Origin: a virus
Taxonomy: Duplodnaviria; Caudoviricetes
Length of the DNA stretch: 64,000 nt
IMG/VR virus record: IMGVR_UViG_3300029288_000071
Span: 96,001-160,000 of that record
Strand: one strand, 5' to 3'
The translations under genes and the position numbers were made by a program. The notes under the pieces were generated by a model. It was not told the DNA's origin, did no database searches, and worked only from the letters and a program-made list of their open reading frames with translations. This document shows, piece by piece, positions 18,401 to 56,259 of the stretch (position 1 is its first letter; each line of letters begins with the position of its first letter).

Positions 18401-18559
18401 AGATAGAATACTCTTACTATGAAAAATATCTCCCACTAAAACAATTCTATCTACTTTTTGTTCTTTTAATGATTGATATAGTTTTTCAAAAATTATTCTA
18501 TATTCTTCATGTCTCTTATATAGCAAAATATGAATATCTGCTAAATGTGCTATTATCAT
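15401..18559 (-). CDS. Fused Mre11/SbcD nuclease - Rad50/SbcC ATPase (gp47-gp46 fusion)
   Basis: DIH, GDIFH, GNHD, FHG and GDIH phosphoesterase motifs, then APNRSGKS Walker A, coiled coil with CQSC hook, GSGME signature, IDESFGTLD, LISH. Confidence 0.93.
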   Translation of the reverse strand: MIIAHLADIHILLYKRHEEYRIIFEKLYQSLKEQKVDRIVLVGDIFHSKSILSPEAVDLGSDFFRNLANIAPLDVIIGNHDVNLKNNERLDSITPIVNNITDSKYQIIVYDQSGLYPISDDVVYGVFSCLDEPNFPINYDIMDVVTSKPTFNTKKGKFIALFHGNISGSVSETNFTFKDTGYDASIMFKNYDAAFLGDIHRLQQIGKMNVWYCGSLIQQDYSEGLQKGYLLWNTDSLSSKPKFVQIPNDNAFYNLKVAYKVDKQNMPIIDNPAKNSSIRLTLSNFTYTVSEIKQIELELRQKYNPIALEVKRDYEQTKKESAFQFQKIKSTADITVQNDLITKFLDKTDSITIERILKINNKIRNSISNEEIMQPNFWKVHEIDWDFTFSYGENNHLNFKNLKGVTGLFAPNRSGKSNFIDTFLYVLFNKSARMSKITKIINNKADTCKAFITIEVNGVLYKITRSSKRVGDGTSTKVTLEKYIDEKWTSATGDSRTDTDKIIRKLIGNFDEIVVSNISSQGKISYFLESGFDETFRLELLSKFLGLNIFKLQYDEAHRLTNEFDTLLKQFKQIDYATFIKNYHDEIEKLNDSLIDLEEDKQYSITQLDQVKIQHAVLKTMIQEVEDIAVANFDKEKIETLHTGLIVQKQSEEKLLEEESKKIERMKLLNLSNKVTELQVKLKEKERLTTDLRQVESDIRVSNLGLKKDKSRVEILERQPWTETTDTCQSCEFFQEADKLKKELKRIENEQNKLIVKKSKIELDIIPISNVDKELEIIKDQILEIQRLENQIKIRSLNIEKLALQIDKAQAILDEQNKEAQTIESIKQIKESNAQISELIAEKEIEIINLNKIVNTVDYNIVAHNKRISELENNIIKSETDLKTMNQLELDSNDYKLYQRCVHREGLPYMIVSSYIDIINDEIHKIVGDYIPFSIKFSLDYDKKSIPISIIYENGTSNPIELGSGMEKTISAIAIRAALASISNIPHCNVFMIDESFGTLDKDWISSIDKFINQLKILFEHVILISHVSEIQDFVDQTITIDTTSGNSQIQF

Positions 18560-18981
18560 TTATATCCCATTCTTTCCATTATTTTTGATAATTTTTCTTT
18601 CATTTCTTTTTGACTCATTATATCTGCATCTAATAATTGTTTAAATATTTCTTCAAAAACTTCAGTTACTATTTCTTCTTTTAATTCAGCTTTAATTTCA
18701 GCTTTAATATTACGTTTAAAAAATTCTTCTTCATGTACATTAGGATGATTTAAACCAGTAGGTCCAGTAGATATACCATAAGTAGATGCACCAATATTTG
18801 AAGAAAAAGATTGTATCCCACTTGTTGAAGGAGGAAGTAGCACATTTGGTACATTAGCACAAGAACTGCTATATGATATTAATGAATTTGATTTACCGTA
18901 TGAATTGATATATGATTTTAAGTCATCAAGCTCTTCTGATTCTTTTTCTTTAATATTAAATAATTTTTTAAATATATTCAT
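18556..18981 (-). CDS. Tagged mini-protein with a capsid-like helix (tag variant IMERMGY)
   Basis: KAEIKAELKEEIVTEVFEEIF aligns with the MCP-like helix of 43652..44050; GPTGL; ends KIMERMGYK. Confidence 0.55.
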   Translation of the reverse strand: MNIFKKLFNIKEKESEELDDLKSYINSYGKSNSLISYSSSCANVPNVLLPPSTSGIQSFSSNIGASTYGISTGPTGLNHPNVHEEEFFKRNIKAEIKAELKEEIVTEVFEEIFKQLLDADIMSQKEMKEKLSKIMERMGYK

Positions 18982-19919
18982 TCTAATATCCTCCTTAGAA
19001 CATCAGATTGCGTAAATCTCTTTCTATTCTTAAGCGCTTGAAAAAATTCTTTTTGAGTTAATTCTCCGGGATCTTTTTTATTGTATTCAATGATAAAAGT
19101 ATTTATTCCCCAATCAGTCAATAGCTTTCCTGCAGTAATAGTTCCTTGTTGACCTGGTTTATCATTATCTAACATTAAATAAACATTTGGTTTATAATTC
19201 ATGATCTTTTTGAATAGCTCACTGTCACTTGCTAAAGCTGATCCCAAAAGAGGTATAGAATTTTGTTTAATATTTATTGCATCAAAAGGACCTTCTACTA
19301 AAATTATAGGTCTATCCCATGTAATGAATAATTCATTGAAAATTATATCTTTTTTTGTAGTTTGAGTATGAACATATTTCATAATATCAGGAGAATTATA
19401 AATTGATCTTGCAACAAAAAAATCAACTCTACCTTTTGAATTATAGCTAGGAACAATTACTCTATCTCTGTATTTTCCTTCTTCACAATAATGAATATTA
19501 AAAGTTCTAATAGTTCTATAGTTTATACCTCTAGAATTAAGAAATGCTATTGATTTTTGTGCTATAACAGAAGGAATACAATTTCTTAATATTTGTGCAC
19601 CCAAAGGAAGTTTAATAGTTTCTTTAAATACAACTTCATTTTTATCTGCAAGTAAACTTCTTAAATCAGTTTCAAATTCAACACCAGATTCTAATCTATT
19701 CCATTCTTTCCAAGCAGCTTCTCCAGCATAAGATCTAATTAATTTTGATACATACCCACCATAATTGCAAATCCAACAATGAAATAGCTTTTTTTCTAAA
19801 CTAATTACAAGCTTTCTTTTATGATGTTGGCACTGAGGACAGAAAATAGTAAATTCTTTTGAATTTGATACATTATCTGGGAATATTTTGTGAAGTAGTT
19901 CAATTTGTTGTTGATTCAT
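18978..19919 (-). CDS. DNA primase (DnaG/gp61-like)
   Basis: CPQC..HCWIC zinc finger; TOPRIM LVEGPFDA and LDNDKPG. Confidence 0.92.
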   Translation of the reverse strand: MNQQQIELLHKIFPDNVSNSKEFTIFCPQCQHHKRKLVISLEKKLFHCWICNYGGYVSKLIRSYAGEAAWKEWNRLESGVEFETDLRSLLADKNEVVFKETIKLPLGAQILRNCIPSVIAQKSIAFLNSRGINYRTIRTFNIHYCEEGKYRDRVIVPSYNSKGRVDFFVARSIYNSPDIMKYVHTQTTKKDIIFNELFITWDRPIILVEGPFDAINIKQNSIPLLGSALASDSELFKKIMNYKPNVYLMLDNDKPGQQGTITAGKLLTDWGINTFIIEYNKKDPGELTQKEFFQALKNRKRFTQSDVLRRILE

Positions 19920-20439
19920 TTTTCACGCCATATAGGGCAATGATATACGAGTCCGCCATATCATAACATTCAGGAATTATTTTTCCTTTATTTCTACCTT
20001 TATTTTTTAAGGGCCAAGTGAAGAGCTTACAATTAGAATTTATCCACTTGAAAACTTCTTCTTTTGCATTTACTCCTTTAGGATAACGACCTATTCCTAT
20101 AATTGATTTTCTAGCAGATGATGCCATTATTTCTATAGGAAAAGTATTAAATTTTTTACATAGTGTAAATAAAAAAGCACCATTAAAACGCAATATTGTG
20201 CTAAGTACTTGTGCAGAAGATAATCCTTTACTAAACATCATGTTAGGTTGTTCAGCATAAATTTTATCAACTGTAAAGTCTTTAAGTTTTTTATCGAATT
20301 GTTCAATTGCAGAGTTAAGTTTTTCAAATAAAGTATCACCAACTGGTTTAATATAATCAATTAAAATTAAGTTTTTGTTTTCATCTAAAATAGTTAAGCC
20401 TACAGTAGAAGTACTTATGTCAAGCCCTAAAATATTCAA
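19900..20439 (-). CDS. RuvC-like Holliday junction resolvase
   Basis: ILGLDISTSTVG, IYAEQP, YDMADSY. Confidence 0.85.
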   Translation of the reverse strand: MNILGLDISTSTVGLTILDENKNLILIDYIKPVGDTLFEKLNSAIEQFDKKLKDFTVDKIYAEQPNMMFSKGLSSAQVLSTILRFNGAFLFTLCKKFNTFPIEIMASSARKSIIGIGRYPKGVNAKEEVFKWINSNCKLFTWPLKNKGRNKGKIIPECYDMADSYIIALYGVKNESTTN

Positions 20440-20852
20440 ACTTCGTATCCGATTTTCTTCATTAGCTTAGTGATTTCATCTATTGATCCAAATATTTGTT
20501 GTTCAAATTGTATAATTCGTTTAATTTGTATAGAATGATGTGGAGATGTGCAATAATAAGCTGTTTTTAATAAAGGAACATCAACATCTGAAAAATCAAA
20601 TTCATCAAAAAAATATTTGTTATTTTGTTTTGACCGAACGATGTGATCATTACTATGTAATTGATTGTAAGTTATTATTTGAATTTTTTTGGGATCTGAA
20701 CAATCATATTTCTTTTTTATTAAATCTCGCATGCTATAACTTGGAACAACAATAGTGGCTGTTCCATTTCCTGATAAAACCCATTGATGAACAGCTTGCA
20801 TCATACGGTGAGTTTTTCCACTTTGTCTTGGAGAGATATCAAGTTCCATCAT
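20436..20852 (-). CDS. Mini terminase-ATPase-like protein with LMKKIGY tag
   Basis: SPRQSGKT Walker A, FFDEFDF Walker B, CTSP motif III; ends ITKLMKKIGYEV. Confidence 0.65.
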   Translation of the reverse strand: MMELDISPRQSGKTHRMMQAVHQWVLSGNGTATIVVPSYSMRDLIKKKYDCSDPKKIQIITYNQLHSNDHIVRSKQNNKYFFDEFDFSDVDVPLLKTAYYCTSPHHSIQIKRIIQFEQQIFGSIDEITKLMKKIGYEV

Positions 20853-20853
20853 T

Positions 20854-21327
20854 TTATAATTCAGTTTCTAATTCTATTCCATTTTCATTAATATTTTTTT
20901 CAACTTTAACTTTAATAGGTTCAATTTTTTCAGGTATCTCAGCTATACTTAATTCAGAAAGTGAATCTGATTTTACCTTTCTAATGAAAGGTGATTTTGT
21001 TATTAAATCTAATTCAGCAAGAATTTTTGTATAATCAGTTTTAGTTTGTTTTTCTTTTGGATCTTTATTAGCTTCATCTTCAGTTTGTCGTAATTTTTGC
21101 ATTACTTGAGCTAATTTTACTAAAATATCAGCTTGTCTACTAGCTTGCTCAAGCCAACGGTCTGCCATTTGAGAAAGAACTACTAAATCTCCTTTATTAC
21201 TCAGCATTGCAGTTTCCATGTGTTGGTACAGTTTATTTGCTTTATTGCGATTCTCTTCAGTTTCATCCATGATTCTTTGGATTAACTTAATAATATCTTC
21301 TTTTTCGTATCCTGTGATATTTGTCAT
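20854..21327 (-). CDS. Hypothetical coiled-coil protein
   Basis: Helical; could be a small terminase-like protein but this is unsupported. Confidence 0.5.
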   Translation of the reverse strand: MTNITGYEKEDIIKLIQRIMDETEENRNKANKLYQHMETAMLSNKGDLVVLSQMADRWLEQASRQADILVKLAQVMQKLRQTEDEANKDPKEKQTKTDYTKILAELDLITKSPFIRKVKSDSLSELSIAEIPEKIEPIKVKVEKNINENGIELETEL

Positions 21328-21683
21328 TAAGATATTTTTCTATTATAAATTAAAGGTCTTGAAATTCCTAAAATTTCTTGTGGTTGTTCAGCAGGTTTTT
21401 CATCAGGTATAATTTGCAATTCTGAATGTTTTTTAACAAGTTCTTCTATTCCATTCCTTACTGCTTTAGTGTTTTCAACAAACTGGAAAATTGTATCATC
21501 ATAATAATGAATATTTTGTTCAAATAAACTATTAATTTGTTGATGAAAATCCCACATTAAATGATAACTTTCAAGTAGATCATCTTGTAGCACATCTTGT
21601 TGTTGACTCATTTTATATAAAAGGAATGTAGCTATTCCTAATAAAATAATTAAAAAAGCTATAACTAACCATAAAATTATCAT
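21327..21683 (-). CDS. Membrane-anchored hypothetical protein
   Basis: N-terminal TM helix. Confidence 0.55.
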   Translation of the reverse strand: MIILWLVIAFLIILLGIATFLLYKMSQQQDVLQDDLLESYHLMWDFHQQINSLFEQNIHYYDDTIFQFVENTKAVRNGIEELVKKHSELQIIPDEKPAEQPQEILGISRPLIYNRKIS

Positions 21684-21687
21684 AACA

Positions 21688-22257
21688 TTACTCTATATGT
21701 GTAAAATAGTCTGCTGTATGTAAGAAAAACATTAGCTTATTTCTAGATTCTTTATGTACTTTGTTTTCTTCTAAGAACATTCCATCGTGCCCTAAAATTG
21801 CTAAATATTCATCATCAGTTAGACTAACTTCAAAATGTGTTAAAATTCTAATACTTCTTTGAGCATGACTTAATCCGTCTGGAAGTTTTGCATTATAATC
21901 AAAGAGCTGCCCTTTTTCAATTTTCCATCTTTCTTGAGTTTGAGTATAAAGCAATTCTCCTTTAATTGTTCCAATTTTTCCTAAGTCATGAAATAAACCG
22001 CAAATTAATCTAGATTCTTTAGAAGTTTCAGGTGCCCAAAGATCACAAAGTAAATTTAAGTTCTTTGTAACAGCAAGACTATGATGCAAAAGTCCGCCGG
22101 GGGCACAATCATGTAGTCCAATTCTGTAGCTTCCTGGAGCTGTAAAATATCTATCTCCTATAACACTTATCATATTATTAATTTTTGTCTTATTGGGTTC
22201 AGTAAATGAATCCATTGCTTTTTCAAATAATTTAATTTCTTCTTCAGTTTTGTTCAT
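21688..22257 (-). CDS. HD-domain phosphohydrolase (YhaM-like)
   Basis: GGLLHHSL, LFHDLGKIG, ILGHDG, HTAD; start moved to MNKTEEE at 22257. Confidence 0.85.
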   Translation of the reverse strand: MNKTEEEIKLFEKAMDSFTEPNKTKINNMISVIGDRYFTAPGSYRIGLHDCAPGGLLHHSLAVTKNLNLLCDLWAPETSKESRLICGLFHDLGKIGTIKGELLYTQTQERWKIEKGQLFDYNAKLPDGLSHAQRSIRILTHFEVSLTDDEYLAILGHDGMFLEENKVHKESRNKLMFFLHTADYFTHIE

Positions 22258-22453
22258 TATTATTTTTCCAAATTCTAGCGGTTCTACACAAAAAAGCAAT
22301 GATAACAAGCATAACAAGTTGTATCAAGGCTAGGAAGAAACCTGCATTAAATAAAGTGATTAAAAAGTTTCCTAAAAATATTAAAGCTAATAAAACTGCT
22401 TGTCCATTGAATTTGTATTGATCAATAACAGCTTTTATTTGTTGAAAATTCAT
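22244..22453 (-). CDS. Small two-TM membrane protein (holin-like candidate)
   Basis: Two hydrophobic segments, basic C-tail, GGAG RBS. Confidence 0.45.
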   Translation of the reverse strand: MNFQQIKAVIDQYKFNGQAVLLALIFLGNFLITLFNAGFFLALIQLVMLVIIAFLCRTARIWKNNNEQN

Positions 22454-22460
22454 ATTGCTC

Positions 22461-22991
22461 CTATTTAAGTTTTTTCAAATCTGAAGGATGTCTTGTAACT
22501 GTTGACCCATCAGACATCTTAACTACATATTGTAGTCCAGGTACTTTTCTACCTAAAACTGTTCCTTCTTTCCAAGCAAGTTTACCCTTTACTATAGAAA
22601 CAAACCGGACTCGCTCACCTTTTGTGAAAGATGAATATTTTCCAGAAGGAATTTCTATCTTTTGAGAATAAGTCCAGAGAGCAGAAGATATTTTTGTTAC
22701 ACTTTTTATATTTACAGATTTGTAAGTTCGGTAAGAATCAGTTTGCAGTCTATTTCTAACATAAGATGAATAAAAATTTTGTGCAGTAATTTTGCCAGGT
22801 CTTAATTGTCCGTAAAGCAGTTTTTTCAGTGTAAAAAAGAAATAAGCTTTTTCTTGAGGAGTTTGATAGTTTTGGTTTAATCCATGTACTAAATTTCCTA
22901 CTTTTGCAAGAAAAAATATCTTTGGGTGTTTATCATGAACATTAGGGGCAGAATAATCAAATTCTATTGTGTCTCCTAATTGTACTTTCAA
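22461..22991 (-). CDS. DNA end protector-like protein (T4 gp2-like) with extra C-terminal SH3-like domain
   Basis: HDKHPKIF..HGLNQNY..YRTY resembles the gp2 family D..PLIF..GLNLHY..Y pattern. Confidence 0.55.
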   Translation of the reverse strand: MKVQLGDTIEFDYSAPNVHDKHPKIFFLAKVGNLVHGLNQNYQTPQEKAYFFFTLKKLLYGQLRPGKITAQNFYSSYVRNRLQTDSYRTYKSVNIKSVTKISSALWTYSQKIEIPSGKYSSFTKGERVRFVSIVKGKLAWKEGTVLGRKVPGLQYVVKMSDGSTVTRHPSDLKKLK

Positions 22992-23002
22992 TTCTTTGCT
23001 AT

Positions 23003-23037
23003 AAAAAATGAACCCGGCAAAATCTCTACCGGGTTCA
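23003..23037 (-). terminator. Rho-independent terminator
   Basis: Stem TGAACCCGG/CCGGGTTCA followed by a T-run on the minus strand. Confidence 0.8.
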
Positions 23038-23048
23038 AAGTGAATTAT

Positions 23049-23279
23049 TTATTGAACTTCTTTTTCTACATCTTCTATTAAAATCATAGTATGAGAAGCT
23101 GGAAAGACTGCAAGTAATTCTTTCCCTTTTGTAACTGTCCAAGAATTATTCTCAGATTTTATTTGATGCGTATCTAAATCGTATCTATAGTGACGTAATC
23201 CAGTTGTTCTTGATTCGTTAGAATTTTTTCCTTGTTTTGTAAGTTCGAATCCTGTTACCAAAATATGATATTGTTTCAT
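23049..23279 (-). CDS. Hypothetical protein
   Basis: ORF track. Confidence 0.5.
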   Translation of the reverse strand: MKQYHILVTGFELTKQGKNSNESRTTGLRHYRYDLDTHQIKSENNSWTVTKGKELLAVFPASHTMILIEDVEKEVQ

Positions 23280-23331
23280 TTTTCATTTTCGTGTTTGGAA
23301 GTTTTTTATGTGTCATTTAATCGAAAACCAA

Positions 23332-23604
23332 TTAGTTTAAATAAATAGCATTTTGTGTTATTGCTTTTAATAATTCAAATCTCTGTATATAATTCATTCT
23401 TTTTAACAAAAATAATTCTTGTAAATCTTTTAATTTATCACTATAATAAGAAGAATCAATAAATAATTCTTTATTTGTAATTTCTGTACATTCTTTTAAT
23501 ATTTCATTTAATTCAACTTTATCAGCTATAAATGAAGAAAAATGTGCATTAAATTCTGCACTTAAAGTATTTTGTAAGATAATATTTGGTTTAAAATGAT
23601 ACAT
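23332..23604 (-). CDS. Hypothetical protein
   Basis: ORF track. Confidence 0.5.
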   Translation of the reverse strand: MYHFKPNIILQNTLSAEFNAHFSSFIADKVELNEILKECTEITNKELFIDSSYYSDKLKDLQELFLLKRMNYIQRFELLKAITQNAIYLN

Positions 23605-24040: not shown

Positions 24041-24104
24041 AACATAACTCCTTTGCTATGCAAGTATTCAATCGTGGATTAGGTAAAACAAAAAATTAAA
24101 TTAC

Positions 24105-24716: not shown

Positions 24717-24753
24717 AAAAGTTCTCTAAATTATCCGTAAAAGTTCTCTAAAT
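24710..24753. repeat. Perfect 22-bp tandem duplication
   Basis: TATCCGTAAAAGTTCTCTAAAT x2. Confidence 0.95.
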
Positions 24754-26700: not shown

Positions 26701-26711
26701 ATTTTCTTTCT

Positions 26712-26845: not shown

Positions 26846-26871
26846 TATAATATAAATATAATTTTATCTAA

Positions 26872-28139: not shown

Positions 28140-28154
28140 AAATACATGACAAAA

Positions 28155-28595: not shown

Positions 28596-29638
28596 AAATT
28601 TTTTAACCTTGCGTTAATTCGATATTGTGAAATATTCGTTGCATTCATGTAAGACATTGAACTTTGTAATCCTGTCTTGAATCTTTTTATAACCTTAGCA
28701 ACAGAATCATCAACATAAGGAACTAACGTTTCATTACCTTCATTAAAATCTGGTTTTTCATTGCTAAATTCTTGTTGTACACTAAATGATGCTGCACCTC
28801 TATAAGTCTTATACTTTGAACCATCTTCTAACTTAAGAACATTTCCTGGAGTTTCTTTATATCCTGCAAATATTTTTCCTGCCATTACTAAATCAGCACC
28901 AGCAACTAAAGCTTTACACATATCAGATGGAGTTCTAATTCCTCCATCAGCAATTATTAGAGTATTTTTTTGAACAGACTTACATTCTAATACAGATTCA
29001 AGAGTAGGCATATACACACCCGTTTCAGTTTTTGTAGAACAAACTGAGCCGCCACCTATGCCTACTCGGATAGCATCTACTCCTAAATTCTGTAAAAATT
29101 CAAATCCTTCTTTTGTAGCTACATTCCCAGCAATAAGATATACTTTACCTGTATAATTTATAGGCTCTGTTTCTCCAATACGTAAATTTGTTATTGCTAA
29201 TGAATCTTCATATAAACTTACGCATTTCCTTATCCATTTAATCGCTTCTTCAATTTGTTTATTTGCTCCATTAGCTGTATCTAGACAAAAAATTCTGCAA
29301 CCCGCAACAAATAATTCTTTAAATCTTTCTTTATAGTCTCCCGTAATTCCTATAGCACAAGCTATAGTTTTTAGTTCTACTCCTAAATGCGCCGTATTGT
29401 TTGTATAGTACTCTTTTCTTTGTTCTTCAATAGATTGAAATCTATGAATGATTCCCAGAGCACCAATTCCTGCTAATCTATAAGACATTTCTCCATTACA
29501 TACATCGGGCATAGGAGAAGCTATAATCGGAACATCTAATTTTGTTCCGAAACAATTTATTGATGTGTCACAATCTTTTCTGTGTTTTATTTCTGAGATA
29601 ACTCTTGGTATTAATGTTGTATTATTGAATGTTTTCAT
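28592..29638 (-). CDS. IMP dehydrogenase / GMP reductase family (no CBS domains)
   Basis: PIIASPM, IAGNVAT, GIGGGSVCST catalytic Cys loop, IIADGGIR, YRGAAS. Confidence 0.9.
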   Translation of the reverse strand: MKTFNNTTLIPRVISEIKHRKDCDTSINCFGTKLDVPIIASPMPDVCNGEMSYRLAGIGALGIIHRFQSIEEQRKEYYTNNTAHLGVELKTIACAIGITGDYKERFKELFVAGCRIFCLDTANGANKQIEEAIKWIRKCVSLYEDSLAITNLRIGETEPINYTGKVYLIAGNVATKEGFEFLQNLGVDAIRVGIGGGSVCSTKTETGVYMPTLESVLECKSVQKNTLIIADGGIRTPSDMCKALVAGADLVMAGKIFAGYKETPGNVLKLEDGSKYKTYRGAASFSVQQEFSNEKPDFNEGNETLVPYVDDSVAKVIKRFKTGLQSSMSYMNATNISQYRINARLKNL

Positions 29639-29903
29639 ATCCTATATTTTTCATTAAAAATTTAATTTTATCAAAATTAGATTTTTTATAACTTTTTAAA
29701 CTTTTGATATCATTGAGTGATACATCAAAAGGTACTCCATCATGTTCAATATTACCATCTGAAATACCTATCAATGTTACTTTGTTTTCTTTATATCTAG
29801 CAATAACAAAATTGTGCCAATCATCTTCAGGATTTACCCAATAAATTTTAACTGGATTGCCGATATTGTTTTCTATGATTCTATCAATCTGTTTTAATTC
29901 CAT
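29622..29903 (-). CDS. Small protein with LMKNIGY tag
   Basis: Ends DKIKFLMKNIGYENIQ. Confidence 0.6.
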   Translation of the reverse strand: MELKQIDRIIENNIGNPVKIYWVNPEDDWHNFVIARYKENKVTLIGISDGNIEHDGVPFDVSLNDIKSLKSYKKSNFDKIKFLMKNIGYENIQ

Positions 29904-31952: not shown

Positions 31953-34900
31953 TTATCCTTTTATTACTTTTATATTTGCAAAACTTCTTGTAGAATATCC
32001 ATACTTGTTATTATCAAGATTTGTCATGACTAATAAACTTCCCACATTAAAATCTAATGGTATTTGTTGAGCCCAGACTTTAACATCCATAGATTTTTCT
32101 TCATCTGCAATAGTAATGACATAATAGTTTTTATTTGTTTTAGTTTTTCTCAATAATACATTTTGTAAAATACCTGCAACAGTTCTAGTCATTGTATCAG
32201 CTTGTCCAACTTTAGTAACTTTATATTTTGTAAGAATTTCATTATATTTTGAAATGGGATGTTCTCTTAAATAAAATCCTAAATATTTTGTTTCAAAAGA
32301 AGTTTTTTCAGAATCAAAATAATCATCTTCTATTTTAAAAGTTGGATTGTCTTTCTTTTTCTTTTCCCTCAGTTGATAGTAATAATTCAAAATTGATTTT
32401 CTATTATTATTCCAAGAATCTAATACACCTAACTGGATAATTGGTTCTATTACTCTTTTTGAGATTTTTTGTTTAACTACTTTTTGCAAAAAATCTTCTA
32501 AAGAATCAAAAGGTCTACAATTAATGAGTTTTTGAACTTCATCTTTACCACACCCTTTAATAATTTTAAATCCAGTTATTATATTATTTTTTTCATCAAG
32601 AGTAAACTCATAACTAGACTTATTTATGTCAAAAGGAATAATATTAATTTGATTCTTTTTGGCTTCTTTTATCATTTCGGGAATATTTTCTTGAGAAATT
32701 CTATTAAGTAAAGAAGTAAAATATTCAAAAGGATAATAGACTTTTAGCCACATTTGTTGATAAGCATTTAGAGCATATCCGGCTGCATGTGCTGCACAAA
32801 AACTATACTCTGAATATTTTGCCATTTGATCTAACAATAAGTCAATTTGTTGTTCATCTAATCCGTTTTTTTCTGCACCAAGTTTAAATTTTTCTAATAC
32901 TTTATCAAAATCATCTTTTCTTTCTGAATCTTGATTTGCTTTATGAAGTAACTTCATTACTTTTCTTGCTTTATCAGCTTCAGCTAAACTAAATCCACCA
33001 ATTTCTCTCAAAATACCCATTACTTGTTCTTGATAAGTAATAACTCCATAAGTTTTTGAAAGAATATTTTCCATTTTAGGATGAATATACTTTATTTTTG
33101 AAGGATTATTCTTATATTCAATATATTGAGCTACAAATCCAGCATCAATACTTGCAGGTCGGTATAAGCTATTAATAGTAGTGATGTCTTCAAAATTTGA
33201 GGGTTTTGATTGTTGAAGAATTGATCTCATACCTGGAGAACCAAATTGGAAGATATCAATTGTATCTGCTTGTTGAAATTTTTCATATACTTTTGGATCT
33301 TCTAATGGATCAGTTTCCATTTTTAATGTAACATTAATTCCTGTTTTTTGCTGAATCAATTTTAATGTGTCATTGATAATAGAACAAGTATTTAATCCCA
33401 ACAAATCAAGTTTAATGAGACCAATTTCAGAAACTTCTCTTTCATCTCCACCTTCTTGTAAAGCAGTCATGTATTGATCTTTTAATCTAATAATTGGAAT
33501 AAAATCATATAATTTTCCAGGAGAAATAACAGTTCCTGATGCATGAGAGCCAGCATTTCTTACTTGGTCTTCTAATTTTGTTCCCCATTTAAGAAAATAA
33601 TCTTCATGATTTTTAATAAATTGCTTAAGATTATCTGGAAGGTTTTTTACAGATAAAGCTTGTAGATTTTCTTTTAATGATTTTTGATCATCAAATATTT
33701 TTGATAATTCATTTGTTAAAGCAAAATCAAAATCATTTACTCTACTTAAATCTCGAACTATAGATTTTGCTCCAAATTTAATGTAATTTGCAATATGAGC
33801 TACTGATTGATAACCATACTCTTTTTTGAGTTCTTCTTCAATCATTTTTTGTTCATCAGAAGAAAAATCACAATCTATATCACAAGGATCTTTTCTTTCA
33901 GGGTTTAAAAATCTTTCAAAATATAGATTATTTTTAATTGGGTCTAGATTTGTAATTTTTAAACAAAAAGATACTAATGAACCCACTGCAGAACCTCTAC
34001 CTGCTCCAGTTCTTCCACCTAATTCTGCTATTTTTTCAATAACAGATTTTATCAATAAAAAATATCCAGCAAATCCTTTTTTCTTGATAATGTCCATTTC
34101 ATATTTGAGTTGTTCTAAATATCTTTTTTCTTTAGGGATTCTTTGTTCATCTATTCTATTTTTAAATCCTTCTACACATAGTTTTGTAAAATAACTTTCA
34201 TTTGTAAAGCCATCAGGAATTTTGCATTTAGGAAAGTTGAATTGATAGAATGGAATTTCAATATTTACTTTAGAATTTATTTCTAATGTATTTTCAAGCC
34301 ATTCTTCTACTTGAGAAGTAGAAACTCCATATTTTTTAGAAGTTTCAATGATTTGATCATATGTCTTTACATAAAATCCGTGTTGATTTATCAACCAAAC
34401 ATTAAAATCAGGTTTAGTCAAATCCTCAAAAGTAGCTCTTTGATTAATCATCATCTTTACTTTTTGAAGATACCAATCTTCTTCATCTACATAGTGGGCA
34501 TCTAATCCAACTATAACTTTAATATTTTCACTTTTACCAATTTCAATAAGTGCATCATTATAATCTTTTTGAAAATTGTCATCTTCCAAAAATTGAACTT
34601 CAAGATAAAAATCATCTTTGAATATCGATTTATATTTTTGAACAAGCTCTACAAAGCCTTTATAATCACTAAAACGAATTTTATTTGCCCATTGAGAGCC
34701 CTGACAAGCTGTAGTTACAATGATATTTCCAGCTTTTTCAAAAATTAACTCATTTTTTGTTCTAGGTTTGTAGTAAAAACCATTCATTACAGCTTCACCA
34801 GAAATGTGAACTATATCTTTATATCCCTGATAATTTTTTGCTAATAAAATGATATGACTATTAAATTTATCAAAATCTTTGAATTGAATTTCTTCTTCTG

Positions 34901-35153
34901 GATTTGGTTCTTTATCTTTTCCTTGATTATCTCTATTATCATTAAGATAAGCTTCAATTCCTATAATTGGATTAATGTTTTGTTTCTTACATTCTTTATA
35001 GAACTTTAAAGAGCTAGCCATATTGCCATGTTCGGTTAAAGATAAACCCGGCATTCCAAGCTCTTTAGCTTTTTTGATATAATTCTCAACAGTCATAGAG
35101 CCATCACCAAATGAATAGCAACTGTGAGCATGGATTGCTGAATAAGTTTTCAT
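31953..35153 (-). CDS. dnaE: DNA polymerase III alpha subunit (DnaE)
   Basis: PHP domain HAHSCYS/TEHGN, GRGSAVGSLV, PCDIDCDF, IKLDLLGL, YQEQVM, YSFCAAHA; no intein evident. Confidence 0.96.
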   Translation of the reverse strand: MKTYSAIHAHSCYSFGDGSMTVENYIKKAKELGMPGLSLTEHGNMASSLKFYKECKKQNINPIIGIEAYLNDNRDNQGKDKEPNPEEEIQFKDFDKFNSHIILLAKNYQGYKDIVHISGEAVMNGFYYKPRTKNELIFEKAGNIIVTTACQGSQWANKIRFSDYKGFVELVQKYKSIFKDDFYLEVQFLEDDNFQKDYNDALIEIGKSENIKVIVGLDAHYVDEEDWYLQKVKMMINQRATFEDLTKPDFNVWLINQHGFYVKTYDQIIETSKKYGVSTSQVEEWLENTLEINSKVNIEIPFYQFNFPKCKIPDGFTNESYFTKLCVEGFKNRIDEQRIPKEKRYLEQLKYEMDIIKKKGFAGYFLLIKSVIEKIAELGGRTGAGRGSAVGSLVSFCLKITNLDPIKNNLYFERFLNPERKDPCDIDCDFSSDEQKMIEEELKKEYGYQSVAHIANYIKFGAKSIVRDLSRVNDFDFALTNELSKIFDDQKSLKENLQALSVKNLPDNLKQFIKNHEDYFLKWGTKLEDQVRNAGSHASGTVISPGKLYDFIPIIRLKDQYMTALQEGGDEREVSEIGLIKLDLLGLNTCSIINDTLKLIQQKTGINVTLKMETDPLEDPKVYEKFQQADTIDIFQFGSPGMRSILQQSKPSNFEDITTINSLYRPASIDAGFVAQYIEYKNNPSKIKYIHPKMENILSKTYGVITYQEQVMGILREIGGFSLAEADKARKVMKLLHKANQDSERKDDFDKVLEKFKLGAEKNGLDEQQIDLLLDQMAKYSEYSFCAAHAAGYALNAYQQMWLKVYYPFEYFTSLLNRISQENIPEMIKEAKKNQINIIPFDINKSSYEFTLDEKNNIITGFKIIKGCGKDEVQKLINCRPFDSLEDFLQKVVKQKISKRVIEPIIQLGVLDSWNNNRKSILNYYYQLREKKKKDNPTFKIEDDYFDSEKTSFETKYLGFYLREHPISKYNEILTKYKVTKVGQADTMTRTVAGILQNVLLRKTKTNKNYYVITIADEEKSMDVKVWAQQIPLDFNVGSLLVMTNLDNNKYGYSTRSFANIKVIKG

Positions 35154-49401: not shown

Positions 49402-50090
49402 TATCTTTTCTCCCATAAAATAATAAAATCGCATGATAAATGATTACAGATTTCTGTTTCTCTATCTAAATCTTTAAAAACCTGCTTGTCATGTCTTTTT
49501 TCATACACTTCATAAACAGTATTTGTTTCTAGACAGTAACCATCAACAACATAACCTAATTTTTTTATGTGATATTGTCTCTGAATTTTACAATTATCTC
49601 TATGCTCTTGTAAATCTAATAGTTGTTTTTCAATTTTTCCTATATTAAAATATGGTTTTGAATTACCATTTATGATTCTATTTAGCATTGAAACTCTCAT
49701 TTTTCTTTTAGTTTCAGAAGAATGATGCTTCCCAAGCATAGCTTTATTGATACACTTATCTCTATTTTCTTTGATTTTAAACCTTTCTTTAATTTTTAAT
49801 CGAGTTTCTTGTGTTACTGGAAATTCCTTATATCGCTTCTTTTGAGCCAAACTACCAATCTCTCTTTGATTTTGTGTCCAAATGCTTCCTAAGTTTCTTG
49901 GTTTTAATTTATTGCTTTCAGCAATTCTTTTTCTGCCTTCTATGGTTTTTGATTTACCTCCTATACTTCCTGAACATTTTTTACATTTTGTATTCAAGTC
50001 TATTGCTCTTTGTAATAAATGCTTAGTTTTGTATGTCTGTAAATTGCCACATTGAGAACAGTTTTTACTAAAATTTTCAGGTAAAATCAT
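49401..50090 (-). CDS. Putative homing endonuclease (Zn finger + NUMOD3 + DUF559-like)
   Basis: CSQC/CKKC, GKHHSSETKRKMR, YVVDGYC..VYEVYEKRH. Confidence 0.8.
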   Translation of the reverse strand: MILPENFSKNCSQCGNLQTYKTKHLLQRAIDLNTKCKKCSGSIGGKSKTIEGRKRIAESNKLKPRNLGSIWTQNQREIGSLAQKKRYKEFPVTQETRLKIKERFKIKENRDKCINKAMLGKHHSSETKRKMRVSMLNRIINGNSKPYFNIGKIEKQLLDLQEHRDNCKIQRQYHIKKLGYVVDGYCLETNTVYEVYEKRHDKQVFKDLDRETEICNHLSCDFIILWEKR

Positions 50091-51397: not shown

Positions 51398-51630
51398 TAA
51401 GTTGTGCTTTCAGTAATAATTTTCTTAATTATACGGCCTTGTTTGTCATATTCATACTCTTCAACAACTTTTTTAGGAGTTATTAGAGGCTGAATTGGTT
51501 GAATTGGATTGATTGGAGGCCATGTTATAGTTATATTGTTAGGTTTTTGATTTCCAAAATATTTGATATATTCTGAACAGCTTTTACAAGCTTCAGTTCC
51601 TGCTAATGAACAACAACATACTAAAGGCAT
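51397..51630 (-). CDS. Small Cys/Pro-rich hypothetical protein
   Basis: CCCSLAGTEACKSC and PIQ repeats. Confidence 0.5.
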   Translation of the reverse strand: MPLVCCCSLAGTEACKSCSEYIKYFGNQKPNNITITWPPINPIQPIQPLITPKKVVEEYEYDKQGRIIKKIITESTT

Positions 51631-51631
51631 T

Positions 51632-52306
51632 TTATTTTTCCTCTTTAAAATAATCTACTATTCCTTTCACAAAAGTTAAAGAGATCACTGGGAGTATTCC
51701 GCTAACCATAAACATTACAAATCGTAATGACCAAGGTGAAGTACTTAATGCTAGTAAATCTAAAATTGACTTAAGTGATTCTGGTGTTGTATTTACATAT
51801 GCATGATACATATTTCCAATAACTTGTAAGGCACTCAATACAAAGAATATAGACCATATTGTAAATTTGTTTAATTTATTAAGTGTAACTAAAGCAACAA
51901 GTGAAGACATAGAAGCTAATTCAATAGATACTGAAATAGCTATCGCCATTGCATAACTATTAGAAGTAGCAAATAAAGTAATTAAATGCATCATAGAAAT
52001 TAATGAAATAGCTAGAGGGGGTATTATAAATGCAAAGAAAATAATTTTTTCTCGTTTTGTTTTGAAAAATGAACTATTTTCTTCTTTTTTTATTTCATTT
52101 TTTTGTTCATATTGTAGTTTTTCATCAGGATATGCTAAAGTTGCTGATTGATTTTTATCTTCTGGAACATTTAAAACTCCTAATACGTCACTTTCTTTTG
52201 CTTTTATTGATTCTGGTTGTGTTGGCATAATATTTTTAATGTTTTCTTCTAAGAATTCAACGTTGTTGCTTCCTCTTTCTTGGTTTAATCCTATTTTGCT
52301 TATCAT
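51632..52306 (-). CDS. Four-TM membrane protein
   Basis: Four hydrophobic segments; SISVSIE, QVIGN, SGILP. Confidence 0.6.
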   Translation of the reverse strand: MISKIGLNQERGSNNVEFLEENIKNIMPTQPESIKAKESDVLGVLNVPEDKNQSATLAYPDEKLQYEQKNEIKKEENSSFFKTKREKIIFFAFIIPPLAISLISMMHLITLFATSNSYAMAIAISVSIELASMSSLVALVTLNKLNKFTIWSIFFVLSALQVIGNMYHAYVNTTPESLKSILDLLALSTSPWSLRFVMFMVSGILPVISLTFVKGIVDYFKEEK

Positions 52307-52661
52307 TTGTTTTTCTTAGATAGTGGGGTAAATCATCGTCTTCTAATTTGTTAATTTCTTGAAAATGCATCAATGCCATAATGTTAAACATTACTCCTGC
52401 AAGATGATCTTCATCTTCATAACCTGCTAAAAACTTATTTAAATGTCTACTAGCAGAATCAACAAATCTATGAAATGGGATCCCGCCTTTTTCCCAATTC
52501 CTATCATAATATTTTATAGCTCCTTTTTCCATCCACTTTGCTATTCGGTCAATAGCAAATGGAGAAACTAAATCATATCTACCTTTTCCAATAGCGGGTT
52601 CTCTAAGAGCTTTACCTTTTCCGAAAACAATTCTTTTTCCTGTATCTGTCATTCCATCCAT
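52257..52661 (-). CDS. dATP/dGTP diphosphohydrolase (DUF5664-like)
   Basis: GKGRYDLV, GAIKY..RNWEKG, SASRHL, EDHLA. Confidence 0.85.
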   Translation of the reverse strand: MDGMTDTGKRIVFGKGKALREPAIGKGRYDLVSPFAIDRIAKWMEKGAIKYYDRNWEKGGIPFHRFVDSASRHLNKFLAGYEDEDHLAGVMFNIMALMHFQEINKLEDDDLPHYLRKTNDKQNRIKPRKRKQQR

Positions 52662-53869
52662 TAAGAAACATCTCCTTCTACTACTTCTTCAGGTATTTCT
52701 AATTCATCAAAAGAAGGTGTACAATTACTATAGTCAATTGAATTTGCATCAATAATCATTTTTCTTACATATTCACGAATTTCAGGAGGAGTAATAATCT
52801 TTCTCCATTCATCTTTTTTGAATTCAACTTGAATGATATTTGGTTCATCTCCTTCTTTTGTATTTACATAATCTGGAAGATTTATAAGATATTTTTGTTT
52901 TGTCGGTCTTTCAATTTTTCCTTTAAGAACTAAATTGTCTAACCAACTAGATTCATCATCAATTCCTTTGTCAAAATAAATATCAAAAGTACACTTTCTT
53001 TGTGGTGGAGCAATTTTATTTTTCTTTGTTTGAGCTTGAACCGTTACTCCAATAACTATGTCATCTTTTTTAATATCTGTTATTTTTGTTAGACGAACTC
53101 TAACTGAAGAATGAAAAGGAACTGCATTACCACCAGGAGCAGTCCATTTATCACCAAAACTAACACCAATATTTGATCTTAACTGATTTGTAAAAAGTAA
53201 TAAAACATCTTCTCTTCCAATAAATTGCGTAACTTTTCTCATAGCTTTAGAAATAGCTAGAGCTTTTGCTGTACCATAACCTTCTTTATCAAAAGAGCCT
53301 TCTAATTCTTCAGTTGAAGGTGTTGCAGCTATTGAATCCCAAACAATAGTAATAAAATCTTTACTTCCTAGTTCTCTAATCTTTTTAATTGTAGATTCAA
53401 TAGTGTCAAATACTTTTTCAACTGTTCCTGCAGATACATAAACTAATTTATGAACTCCTGCTTTTTCTGCTTCTTTTCCAACTTTTAATCCCATTTTAAC
53501 AAGTAAACTAATATCAGTTGAATTTTCTTCATCAAAAAGAATAGGAATTCCTCCCATTTTTTGTGTATTAATTAAAACTTGATTTGCAACTAATGATTTT
53601 CCAGCAGAAGTATTACCAGTTAATTCAACTAATCTACGAACTGGCATTCCTCCACCTTGTTGCCATTTACCATTTGTAATTATTGTATCAAGAATTGTAC
53701 TACCTGTAGAGATGAGAGTTGTTATATCAGTTGGTGTTCCTTGTTCACCTAATAGATAAGCTCTATCACCAATACTTTTTGACATATTTTTTATTAATGC
53801 ATCAGATAAAGAAGATTTGTCACCCAAATTACTCAACGCATCTTCTGCTGAAGTTACTCGTTTTGCCAT
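52661..53869 (-). CDS. recA: RecA/UvsX recombinase
   Basis: ISTGS..LD, GNTSAGKS, IVWDSIAA, FTNQLR, PGGNAVPFHSSVR, KNKIAPP. Confidence 0.95.
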   Translation of the reverse strand: MAKRVTSAEDALSNLGDKSSLSDALIKNMSKSIGDRAYLLGEQGTPTDITTLISTGSTILDTIITNGKWQQGGGMPVRRLVELTGNTSAGKSLVANQVLINTQKMGGIPILFDEENSTDISLLVKMGLKVGKEAEKAGVHKLVYVSAGTVEKVFDTIESTIKKIRELGSKDFITIVWDSIAATPSTEELEGSFDKEGYGTAKALAISKAMRKVTQFIGREDVLLLFTNQLRSNIGVSFGDKWTAPGGNAVPFHSSVRVRLTKITDIKKDDIVIGVTVQAQTKKNKIAPPQRKCTFDIYFDKGIDDESSWLDNLVLKGKIERPTKQKYLINLPDYVNTKEGDEPNIIQVEFKKDEWRKIITPPEIREYVRKMIIDANSIDYSNCTPSFDELEIPEEVVEGDVS

Positions 53870-53889
53870 ATTATTTTCCTGAAAAAATT

Positions 53890-53954
53890 AAGCTAGGAAG
53901 AAACAAAATATGAATTATTGTCAAATTAATTCACTTTTGAATCTTCACTAGCTT
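53890..53954 (-). promoter_or_regulatory. Long bulged hairpin between ssb and recA
   Basis: Nested pairs AAGCTAG/CTAGCTT, GAAGA/TCTTC, CAAAA/TTTTG and TGAATTA/TAATTCA, followed by a T-run on the minus strand. Confidence 0.65.
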
Positions 53955-53960
53955 CTAGAA

Positions 53961-54749
53961 TTATTTATTTATGTTTTGGTTTTTTATTGCATCAAACATT
54001 TCACTGAGCTCACTTAAATCTTCTGAAGTTCCTTCATCTTCTGAAGCTTCAGGATTTGTTATAGGAGCTTGAACTTGATCTCCTTCAGCAACAAATGCAT
54101 CTAATGCATTCTTTATTTCTTCAGGTGTCAGTTTGTTAAATGCATCAAAAACATTAGGACAGTTTTTAATTAGATCAGTTGCAACTTTAGCATCAGAACT
54201 TAATGCTGAAGGATTTGCTGCAGGTCTAACTTGAACTTGTCCATAAATAAATTGAGGTGTTGGGGCTGTTGCCATAACCTTTATATCTCTTCCTTTTATA
54301 GGATCACTTAAATCACCATATTCTGGATCAATAAATAATTGAGCAATTGAAGTATAAGTATTTTTACCTATTCCCCAAAATTTCACACCTTCTGTTTCTT
54401 GACCTCTAACTAAAACAGGAATGTAAACTCTCAAGCGAGATTTGAGTCTTTTCCAAAGAGCAAAATTTTTGTCATTTTTCTCTTGGACTAAATATGCACC
54501 ATATTCACATATAGCACATTTTTCAGCAGGATTTATAGAACGAGGACAAATAATTGATTTCACAGGTCCTACATCATAGTGAAAATATAATTCATTAAAA
54601 GGATCAGGACCATGTTTATATGGAACAATTCTTAATTGAACTTCCTGACCTCGAGGTGGTCTAAAAATTAATGTTTGTTTTTTTGTTTGATTAGTCATTG
54701 CGTCAAGTTTTGCTTTGACTGAACTCATTACCTTGTTGTCGATTGGCAT
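53961..54749 (-). CDS. Single-stranded DNA-binding protein (T4 gp32-like)
   Basis: LRIVP, YFHY, CP..CAICE zinc site, GVKFW, YGDLSDPIKGRDI, acidic tail; next to recA. Confidence 0.85.
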   Translation of the reverse strand: MPIDNKVMSSVKAKLDAMTNQTKKQTLIFRPPRGQEVQLRIVPYKHGPDPFNELYFHYDVGPVKSIICPRSINPAEKCAICEYGAYLVQEKNDKNFALWKRLKSRLRVYIPVLVRGQETEGVKFWGIGKNTYTSIAQLFIDPEYGDLSDPIKGRDIKVMATAPTPQFIYGQVQVRPAANPSALSSDAKVATDLIKNCPNVFDAFNKLTPEEIKNALDAFVAEGDQVQAPITNPEASEDEGTSEDLSELSEMFDAIKNQNINK

Positions 54750-54883
54750 TGAGATTTTCTCCGTAGAATGTAACGTATTTTTACTAAGGATATTGAGGTA
54801 CTACGCTACTAGGGTTGATTTCTATTTAATTACTAATTTGATGTAGAACCGATTGGTAGGTATAAATATAATTCAAATATTTT

Positions 54884-55735
54884 CTAAGTAAACAATTGTT
54901 TGTAAAATGCGTAATTATTTTTAAAAAAATTATTTTCTTTTACTTTAGAAAACTTATCAAGCGCTCGTTTATTAAAAATAATTCCATGAATATCTAAACC
55001 ACTTTTTGAAGTTCTTAAGTAAGTAATTAAGTTGTATTTTTGACTTAACTTTTTAAAAATTTCTATTTGCATTAAAATATAATGATACTTAGAAGTATCA
55101 ATTAGTTCTTGATTAGGCGTTGCAAAAATAAAAACATCTGCTTTTGAAAGTTTTAAAATCATTTCTTCAGGATTGCTAACGTGCTCTAATGTATGAAAAC
55201 AAGTGCATATTGATTTTTCTGGAAATTTCGTAAATTCATCAGGATGTTTATAAGTAATCCCAACTCCTGCCATTAAGTCTCTAAAATCTTTAACTTCAAC
55301 TAAAATTTTTTCTTTACAGTCAGGTAAAAGTGCTAAAAATGGAGAAGATCCTCCACCAAAATCAATTACTGTATCATCTTTTTCTATTATTGAATTTATA
55401 AAATTAGCATATTCAACATCAAATCCGGGATTTTCATAAGGAGGATTCAATCTAACAGCCCCATAACCTGGAGCATCTGTGATAATTGTTTTGTTGTCTT
55501 CTCTATCACACTTAAGTTTTATTCTTTCTTCATAATTTTCTTTTAGAAACTTAACTTTAGCTTTAAATGATTCAGGAGTATTAAATCCATCATAACCTGC
55601 TAAGTCAGTATATGATTCATAATTAGTATTTTCCCAATTGCATCTTTTTCTTAAGATTCGATAAAACTCATCATCTGAATTTCTTGCAAGTTTGATTTCA
55701 TCTGAAAATATTTTTACTTCTTTAAATTCTTCCAT
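54884..55735 (-). CDS. Class I SAM-dependent methyltransferase-like
   Basis: VIDFGGG, FHTLEHVSNP, FATPN. Confidence 0.75.
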   Translation of the reverse strand: MEEFKEVKIFSDEIKLARNSDDEFYRILRKRCNWENTNYESYTDLAGYDGFNTPESFKAKVKFLKENYEERIKLKCDREDNKTIITDAPGYGAVRLNPPYENPGFDVEYANFINSIIEKDDTVIDFGGGSSPFLALLPDCKEKILVEVKDFRDLMAGVGITYKHPDEFTKFPEKSICTCFHTLEHVSNPEEMILKLSKADVFIFATPNQELIDTSKYHYILMQIEIFKKLSQKYNLITYLRTSKSGLDIHGIIFNKRALDKFSKVKENNFFKNNYAFYKQLFT

Positions 55736-56259
55736 TAATATCCGATTCTTTTCATTAAAACTTCGATAGGATCTATAATTTTTGGGATAAAGTTTGGTGG
55801 AGATACTTTTAAATTATTACTACCCATATTAAGTGGCATTATTCCTTCAGAAAATTCTGTTTCAGCATATCTAGCTATAATTCCCCTTCTAGGAATAAAA
55901 CTAGGATCAATAATCGGTACAGTTGGCATTAATGTCAGAAAATAAAATATTTTATTTGTTGCTATTTTATTTAATTCATCAGTAACTACATCAAATAATT
56001 GATCAAGTATTTCTCTTTTAGAATAATCAAGTGAATCAACAAATGAACATCTTAATTTTCTACTTGCACAAATTAAAGGTTTTTGTATTAGTTCTAAATC
56101 TTCTAAAATAGTTATTACAAAAGTAGGACTAGGTGCTCGATCATATTTAAACCTAACTTTATCAGGATTATTGTGAAAATAAATAAAAAGATTGTCAGTA
56201 AATTCAATGTTATTTATTCCTGAAAAATTAACTATTTTATTTGGTTGATAATCTATCAT
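55735..56259 (-). CDS. Major capsid protein-derived mini-protein with LMKRIGY tag
   Basis: ASRKLRCSF and IIDPSFIPRRGIIARYA match the gp23-family SRKLKA.W and DP.SF.P..G..TRYG/A; ends DPIEVLMKRIGY. Confidence 0.7.
   Translation of the reverse strand: MIDYQPNKIVNFSGINNIEFTDNLFIYFHNNPDKVRFKYDRAPSPTFVITILEDLELIQKPLICASRKLRCSFVDSLDYSKREILDQLFDVVTDELNKIATNKIFYFLTLMPTVPIIDPSFIPRRGIIARYAETEFSEGIMPLNMGSNNLKVSPPNFIPKIIDPIEVLMKRIGY

Follow-up and report, generated by a model that had tools for sequence, protein, structure and literature searches.

Why should small phage proteins of unrelated sequence carry the same short peptide, in most cases close to their stop codon? The question is raised by a 64,000-nucleotide stretch of viral DNA (the window), corresponding to positions 96,001-160,000 of the 207,030-bp IMG/VR record IMGVR_UViG_3300029288_000071 (29% GC, 91% complete according to CheckV). 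A first-pass annotation of the window had listed eight small open reading frames (ORFs; named here by their lower window coordinate, Table 1) sharing a peptide of the type LM[KR][KR]IGY, the tag, and had interpreted them as a modular system in which pieces of phage head proteins act as baits that the tag docks on a common partner. All eight tag sites are present on the minus strand. The following analysis shows that the tag is a peptide-level feature of one phage lineage, retained while the proteins that carry it are exchanged, and suggests that it may work as an address.

In the whole 207-kb genome, the strict regular expression [LIVM]M[KRE][KRN][IM]GY has 16 matches, compared with a mean of 0.005 in the 200 residue shuffles used as background; the frequency of the tag is thus far above chance. 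A looser expression or a hidden Markov model (HMM) recovers 28 tags in 27 ORFs of 61 to 174 amino acids distributed genome-wide, more than had been reported, and most of them lie outside the window, between 23 and 82 kb of the record. The consensus sequence is D-[P/K/E]-I-x-x-L-M-K-K-[I/M]-G-Y-[E/D]. The LMKKIGY-type peptide also ranks first in the genome in an unbiased scan of C-terminal 8-mers (18 partner ORFs, far ahead of the rest). A six-frame scan places the 28 tags, without exception, in open frames of at least 50 amino acids on the coding strand; the same scan gives no match in long frames of two complete tag-less relatives (G003 and G004). A literature search for 'MKKIGY' gave no match.

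The tag is located at most 10 residues from the stop codon in 23 of 27 cases (non-overlapping gene set; binomial p = 3e-17). It directly precedes the stop in only four cases, the tail after Gly-Tyr comprising 0 to 10 residues; two tags are N-terminal and three are internal. Tagged genes represent 8% of all genes and 13% of those encoding up to 180 amino acids. They are found at 23-37 kb, 63-82 kb and 114-152 kb of the record and never in structural regions. The tags at 63-82 kb are interspersed with 24 transfer RNA (tRNA) genes: at 63-79 kb these tRNA genes stand among 14 tagged small ORFs, several of which end 0-3 nt before the next tRNA gene or overlap it. Apart from the tag, the bodies of these proteins are unrelated, since all-versus-all BLAST and alignment match the tag only; the body types include a P-loop domain, Zn-ribbon-like Cys clusters and pieces of the major capsid protein (MCP). 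Membership is doubtful for ORF 46456, listed earlier as a tag variant: the variant sequence is there, but it lacks the invariant Gly both here and in the ortholog of a sister phage (LMEKIY), and the ORF would be at best a degenerate member. A near-tag, 'WMKKKGY', on a 380-aa head-module protein (window 4888-6030) was dropped because it is not conserved (SMKNKGM in the sister).

The conservation of the tag concerns the peptide, as the first-pass annotation had claimed. The codons of Gly (p = 0.90), Leu (p = 0.23) and Tyr (p = 0.11) are used in the tags as in the genome, those of Arg are likewise indistinguishable, and the DNA flanking the tags is unrelated. Only the Lys codons deviate, with extra AAG breaking up the A-runs. 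Near-identical DNA is present in landfill and groundwater metagenomes, and natural variation within a tag was seen only in the groundwater variant, as two differences in the tag 44305-44325, both synonymous. Since synonymous codons are used in the tag as elsewhere in the genome, selection acts on the peptide.

The tag is lineage-specific, being restricted to this phage and to one sister. A back-translated pattern for L-M-K-K-I-G-Y-[D/E], run on 2.9 million viral contigs, detected one other virus with the tag, plus four chance singletons. This second virus is a sister phage represented by four contigs of one metagenome (G001, G002, G006 and G007), with 70-82% nucleotide identity; its 14 tags are all C-terminal or co-directional and none is on its structural contigs. 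A profile search of 5.8 billion proteins gave matches from these two phages only, and a homolog search with 'near' length matching gave no match. In complete distant relatives (MCP about 40% identical), the tag was not found; other small-gene expansions are present instead.

The comparison of the two sisters reveals how fast the bodies change. When the tag is masked, 7 of the 10 tagged ORFs on the sister contig G006 have no BLAST match in this genome, and 11 of the 16 tagged ORFs of this phage located in the covered regions have none in the sister. The tRNA genes between the tagged ORFs are 85-100% identical. Since most tagged bodies have no counterpart despite near-identical tRNAs, the bodies have been exchanged and the tag retained. 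For the bodies that do have an ortholog, the ratio of nonsynonymous to synonymous substitution rates (dN/dS) is 0.22-0.43 in four of five pairs, with dS up to about 1.

The reading that we favor, and to which we give about an even chance, is that the tag represents a portable address or docking label carried by fast-turnover small accessory proteins, with one common putative reader whose existence and identity we infer. The sequence D-[P]-I-x-x-L-M-K-K-[I/M]-G-Y would be a portable short linear motif, probably an amphipathic helix turn-set capped by Gly-Tyr. Its recognition by one common partner would allow a large and rapidly exchanged repertoire of small proteins to be handled as a single class. 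The portability of the tag is deduced from three observations: the relatives of ORF 20436 have no tag, the position of the tag relative to the MCP pieces differs between the sisters (see below), and ORF 44251 consists largely of two tags. ORF 20436 encodes a small but complete P-loop protein, with a Walker A motif 'SGKT' and a Walker B motif 'FFDEF'. In the ESM atlas it falls in a family of phage P-loop proteins of about 190 amino acids (score 0.95, TM 0.71) whose other members are tag-less, which indicates that the tag has been added to a protein already in existence. Its earlier assignment as a terminase fragment is not retained: there is no Pfam match, the Smith-Waterman comparison with the phage's own TerL gives p = 0.33 and TerL is only a generic ASCE-fold neighbor of its family. 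A search of PDB sequences with ORF 20436 gave nothing significant. The AlphaFold2 models of ORF 20436 (single sequence) and of ORF 55735 (2-sequence alignment) had predicted local distance difference test (pLDDT) values of about 31-33 and were unusable.

As to the destination, targeting to the prohead interior or to the scaffold for co-injection would be the leading candidate, itself rather unlikely. Docking on a host hub protein is given a chance as low or slightly lower, and timed turnover by the soluble AAA+/M41 protease encoded in the window a smaller one again.

Several points weigh against an address with a single reader. The tag is known from two sister phages only, so that phyletic profiling has no power, and about two thirds of all genes are likewise lineage-specific. 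The five internal or N-terminal tags indicate that a free C-terminus is not required, and the variable tail after Gly-Tyr argues against a classical degron of the extreme C-terminus. Nor does the segment before the tag stand out clearly as a disordered linker. The capsid-targeting sequence (CTS) of T4 is N-terminal and has a prohead-protease site, whereas the tag is mostly C-terminal and no consistent [LIV]-x-E site was found upstream of it. The expression class cannot be read from the T4 late-promoter motif (TATAAATA), which is uninformative in this genome (23 copies on the minus strand and 28 on the plus strand, without association with gene starts). Finally, no reader was identified, and neither of the two candidate proteases of the window co-varies with the tag.

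The first of these proteases is a stand-alone Peptidase C39, which is 75% identical in the sister; in the wider clade, its gene is localized beside those of TerL and the portal. This 'double-glycine peptidase' is conserved in the head-gene module of a T4-like clade from landfill and groundwater (L127-L132). The wider-clade C39 contigs that were fetched contain no tags, and no ORFs with a GG leader were found beside the C39 gene. The substrates of C39 have an amphipathic N-terminal leader ending in G-G, G-A or G-S; the tag is C-terminal and ends in G-Y. A role of C39 as reader, judged from these sequences, appears neither supported nor excluded. The second candidate is a soluble AAA+/M41 (FtsH-like) protease, and both enzymes are apparently active, as their catalytic motifs suggest (Table 1). 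The earlier idea that the tag docks on the AAA+/M41 protease found no direct support. The family is widespread in viruses without the tag: it includes 883 representatives at E<1e-30, and members are encoded on giant-virus-like and phage contigs devoid of a shared tag. The tag-less relatives G003 and G004 lack the gene, as they do about two thirds of all genes. No close homolog was detected in IMG/VR, and the contig of the sister stops short of this locus. One member of the family shares its contig, assigned to an 'Aenigmarchaeota MAG' bin, with genes for an mRNA capping enzyme and Rpb10; this contig looks like a mis-binned giant virus. A complex prediction combining the tag segment, the MCP and a scaffold candidate gave a score of 0.00, which counts neither for nor against binding.

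Known systems offer partial likenesses. The T-even internal proteins are diverse, defense-countering proteins with only a CTS in common (PMC3012670), and in T4 the CTS of IPI, IPII, IPIII and Alt is, like the tag, a short conserved peptide on unrelated small proteins, that is, one address for many cargos (PMC3012670). Both occur in T4-like phages, at loci that are hypervariable between close relatives and near tRNA or accessory regions. However, the CTS comprises about 10 residues and is removed by cleavage at the prohead-protease site (L/I-x-E) that terminates it; the tag is unrelated in sequence. The degrons of ssrA, MuA and lambda CII, recognized by ClpXP or FtsH, are also C-terminal peptides that direct many proteins to one machine, and this phage does encode a soluble AAA+/M41 protease. 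These degrons are usually at the extreme end with a free carboxylate, unlike the tag with its variable tail and internal copies, and homologs of the protease are also found in viruses devoid of a shared tag. The cargo-loading peptides of encapsulins are short and C-terminal, are found on diverse cargos and dock on the interior of an HK97-fold shell, with a variable tail and preceding segment. The tag resembles them as a short C-terminal peptide on diverse proteins, with a tail of varying length, but it differs, by eye, in consensus (L-x-I-G-S-L-K type versus L-M-K-K-I-G-Y), and its 27 'cargos' are far more than those of encapsulin operons.

It is also conceivable, and we regard it as unlikely, that the tag is itself the active element, many carriers delivering a high combined dose of one inhibitory peptide that saturates or blocks a host protein, for example a chaperone, a protease adaptor, a clamp or a site on RNA polymerase. 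The bodies would then be largely arbitrary, and gene fragments could serve as bodies. The unrelated and rapidly exchanged bodies, the retention of the tag and the tolerance for chimeric gene fragments agree with this explanation. So does ORF 44251, essentially two tandem tags, where the C-terminal 30 residues are almost identical in the sister and the body is variable with indels. In ORF 55735, three conservative changes affect the 7-residue core of the tag between the sisters, all within the consensus. The same ORF also provides an objection: residues 18-167 are 100% identical to those of the sister ortholog over 150 amino acids, the other differences being confined to the N-terminus, while the neighboring genes have about 80% nucleotide identity. 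This block suggests a recent exchange or a very strong constraint. Other bodies are also under purifying selection (dN/dS 0.2-0.4) and the ATPase motifs of ORF 20436 are intact, which argues that bodies have functions of their own. For ORF 55735, a search of PDB sequences gave nothing significant and a search of the ESM atlas gave noise only.

The bait model of the first-pass annotation depends on the resemblance of the bodies to head proteins. This resemblance was tested on all tagged ORFs with Pfam, PHROGs, BLAST and Smith-Waterman comparisons with shuffle-derived p-values. ORF 43652 matches the E-loop and spine-helix region of the MCP (Pfam Gp23, PF07068, 33.8 bits for a cut-off of 24.4; Smith-Waterman p = 4e-11), with 45% identity to residues 319-365 of the phage's own MCP (tblastn), and it contains a 15-aa snippet of the prohead-protease N-terminus (p = 1e-3). 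ORF 44037 is 57% identical to residues 499-533 of the same MCP, which form the C-terminal strand (p = 2e-14); its Gp23 score of 21.2 bits is under the cut-off. ORF 55735 displays the MCP motif 'F.PRR....RYA' (p = 1.6e-3), which aligns to MCP residues 519-547 and matches 79 of 81 clade MCPs. The MCP and protease pieces announced for these three ORFs are therefore borne out. The same does not apply to ORF 18556, proposed as MCP (p = 0.012, not significant), nor to ORF 46456, proposed as portal (p = 1.0); ORF 29622 has no recognizable body. Outside the window, the tagged ORF at 67924-68190 of the record displays the portal motif 'R.IYYIDVG' (p = 1.3e-4), and a tagged ORF of the sister (G006 12591-12842) resembles the 'VSVQP' region of the MCP.

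Head-protein pieces are present in 4 of 28 tagged but only 1 of 149 untagged small ORFs (Fisher p = 0.002). Counted by tests at p<2e-3, 5 of 112 are positive for the tagged ORFs and 1 of 596 for the 149 untagged ORFs (Fisher p = 5e-4), so that the enrichment is genuine. The fragments do not constitute a capsid protein: of the approximately 376 positions of the Gp23 profile, the fragments cover only 141-194 and 299-331, in an altered order and with the tag breaking them up, and there is no full-length HK97-type fold. ORF 44037 comprises a degenerate relic of the protease N-terminus (A), the MCP C-terminal piece (approximately 44097-44201) and the tag, and ORF 43652 comprises the protease N-terminal snippet (approximately 44000-44044), a Cys/His cluster, the tag and the E-loop and spine-helix piece (43664-43801). 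In the sister, the corresponding orders are protease N-terminus, MCP C-terminal piece and tag, followed by E-loop, tag and spine helix. The pieces are 40-60% similar to all 81 clade MCPs, and none of them finds its best match in the MCP of this phage; being about equally similar to all 81, they are not recent self-copies. A decayed gp24 paralog as source is without support, because in the relatives the Gp23 family is represented by one gene only and such fragments are absent. ORF 44037 has an ortholog in the sister (G002 17153-17461) with a dN/dS of 0.43, and the head pieces of the chimeric ORFs are maintained by selection. The head-motif ORFs are most simply considered as chimeric members of the tagged repertoire.

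Two resemblances concern the tag itself. The tag of ORF 44037 (within the segment 44049-44093) aligns, with a 2-residue gap, to MCP residues 536-547 (P-R-R-A-V-M-T-R-Y-A-K), and in ORF 55735 the MCP-like motif 'SFIPR' and the segment 'NFIPK…tag' resemble a tandem duplication. A derivation of the tag from the C-terminal motif of the MCP is speculation without statistical support, as the tag HMM yields no score for the MCP.

According to the bait model, the mini-proteins display epitopes of the MCP, the portal and the prohead protease as decoys for defense sensors or as poisons of rival assembly, and the tag tethers them to an effector. Its modular tag on unrelated small proteins and some of its head pieces have been confirmed, but the decoy or poison function is without direct support, and we consider it a poor prospect as a general explanation. 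The enrichment of head pieces and the further pieces of the sister speak for it. All the pieces correspond to the most conserved signature motifs, equidistant from the 81 clade MCPs, which fits selection on family-wide residues, and the chimeric ORF (A-B-T) is kept under constraint in both phages, while the tag-less relatives have neither fragments nor a gp24 paralog to decay. On the other hand, only conserved motifs stay detectable in any old or foreign fragment, so that a detection bias would give the same picture. At least 80% of the tagged bodies have no hallmark similarity, ORF 20436 is not a fragment, and the claims for ORFs 18556 and 46456 fail. Sensors known so far, among them Avs, recognize folds and not 30-residue snippets. 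A mimic of the MCP expressed early might just as well set off abortive infection or act as a poison on the assembly of the phage itself. In T4, the Gol peptide, a piece of about 30 residues of the MCP gp23, activates the Lit protease and can be active on its own; it acts within full-length gp23 as a trigger of host defense, whereas here separate mini-ORFs carry MCP motifs and the tag. The bait idea is thus alive only for the fragment-bearing minority of tagged ORFs. A combined version, which we judge improbable, is a tag-guided epitope display, in which conserved capsid, portal and protease motifs, together with other effectors, would be coupled to one machine (the AAA+/M41 protease or the prohead interior) against host sensors or rivals. 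If true, the phage could by this means capture or destroy host sensors that detect head proteins, or disrupt assembly in T4-like rivals infecting the same cell.

The tagged ORFs could also represent an ordinary paralog family in which only the C-terminus is still recognizable, or non-functional decay remnants. A few pairs are weakly similar just upstream of the tag (the D-P-I subset), and the fifth orthologous pair, with a dN/dS of about 0.95, is the only one to agree with the decay (dN/dS near 1) considered in the first-pass annotation; the other four are constrained. Given the range of lengths, the differing bodies without any detected body-to-body similarity and the fact that chance does not keep frames of 60-170 codons open at 29% GC, with most orthologs at a dN/dS of 0.2-0.45, this explanation is very improbable.

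The weakest explanation, a nucleotide-level signal (translation-initiation region, promoter or RNA-processing site) for the downstream gene inside the 3' end of the upstream ORF, is close to negligible and, as a general translation-initiation signal, is rejected and largely refuted: the Tyr-Asp/Glu codons of the tag do form a downstream ATG (T-ATG-A) in six cases, with an ATG 5-8 nt later in four more, but 18 of the 28 tags have no nearby start codon and are followed by tRNA genes or spacers of 80-190 nt, which excludes initiation as a general explanation, and each copy is in frame with a long ORF, with third positions varying as genome-wide and flanks that are not conserved. The overlap with start codons may account for the preference for Asp or Glu after Tyr. 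The GMP-reductase-like gene downstream of ORF 29622 starts at the T-ATG-A of the Tyr-Glu codons, and in ORF 18556 the Tyr codon of the tag is followed, 5 nt further on, by the start of the Mre11-Rad50 gene.

Small orphan genes dominate phage genomes, and a common tag provides one experimental handle on about 27 of them; if the reader were found, the whole class of tagged small proteins would become interpretable. If the tag is a C-terminal signal for capsid targeting or turnover, it would constitute a second, independently evolved counterpart to the N-terminal CTS of T4 and would lend itself directly to loading or timing cargo. Shared targeting peptides on diverse cargo are known; the unusual element here is the sub-class of head-motif chimeras. 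Built from the most conserved motifs of the MCP, the portal and the protease, these tagged chimeras represent an unusual reuse of structural-gene snippets that bears on the origin of new phage genes.

Table 1. Tagged ORFs and other features of the window (window coordinates; aa, amino acids; iE, independent E-value).
Feature	Position	Strand	Length	Tag	Remarks
ORF 18556	18556..18981	-	141 aa	IMERMGY, 18562-18582	One residue before stop; orphan body
ORF 20436	20436..20852	-	138 aa	LMKKIGY, 20445-20465	Small P-loop (ASCE) body
ORF 29622	29622..29903	-	93 aa	LMKNIGY, 29637-29657	Orphan body
ORF 43652	43652..44050	-	132 aa	43838-43858	Chimeric; internal tag
ORF 44037	44037..44261	-	74 aa	44049-44069	Chimeric
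ORF 44251	44251..44484	-	77 aa	LMKKIGY, 44305-44325; LMQKIGY, 44260-44280	Tandem tags
ORF 46456	46456..46770	-	104 aa	LMKRIY, 46480-46497	Variant without the invariant Gly; tag HMM 9 bits, iE 0.09
ORF 55735	55735..56259	-	174 aa	LMKRIGY, 55738-55758	Directly before stop; motif like the MCP C-terminal signature at about 55861-55944
Portal	1269-3173				Uninterrupted in this phage
TerL					Head gene
Prohead protease					Head gene
Peptidase C39, stand-alone	8654..9190	-			Head gene; Pfam 64.5 bits; Cys/His/Asp present; candidate reader
AAA+/M41 (FtsH-like) protease, soluble	13448..15388	-			Pfam; Walker A, Walker B, HELGH; no N-terminal transmembrane segment; candidate reader
Fused Mre11-Rad50	15401-18559
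NUMOD3 + restriction endonuclease (DUF559-like) gene, homing-endonuclease type	42708..43367	-			Pfam; immediately downstream of the fragment cluster
Nucleotide metabolism genes
Several homing endonucleases

Concerning the source, the virus is an uncultured deep-branching T4-like myovirus from landfill. Its MCP gene (record 11232-12950, plus strand) encodes a protein with less than 40% identity to those of Microcystis phage Mel-JY01, the Flavobacterium 'immuto' phages and Rhodothermus RM378, and 306 of the 320 genes are carried by the minus strand. The homing-endonuclease gene next to the fragment cluster is a mobile insertion, absent both in the sister and in the groundwater variant, in which the contig joins 42712 to 43385; its paralogs are at 165989-166921, 186426-187025 and 189230-189619 of the record. 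Its presence or absence among strains indicates that the locus of the fragment cluster is recombinationally active.

In the sister and in related contigs (L127 and L130), the portal genes have insertions: that of the sister (G007 11743-14315) is about 2.4 kb longer, and in relatives Pfam Intein_splicing matches inside Portal_T4. The replisome is of bacterial type, DnaG, PolIII alpha/DnaE, DnaB, RecA and gp32 being present in the window; PolIII alpha/DnaE (31953-35153), DnaB (47995-49434) and DnaG (18978-19919) replace the gp43/gp41/gp61 set in this T4-like phage. A class II (B12) ribonucleotide reductase of 667 amino acids is encoded at 44460-46463, and the same locus of the sister (L088 14488-16920) encodes an unalignable reductase of 810 amino acids, which has the appearance of a non-orthologous replacement, the identity between the two phages being about 80%. 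Elsewhere in the record, beyond the window, four proteins encoded at 42431-48945 have in common the N-terminal leader M-K-T-R-K-G-F-[IV]-S-N-S-S, the second most recurrent terminal peptide of the genome. In the distant relative G003, about 19 paralogous ORFs of approximately 60 amino acids at 103-117 kb share both their N-terminus (MKVGDLVK) and their C-terminus (LEVVSESR), and this array is a different kind of small-gene expansion.

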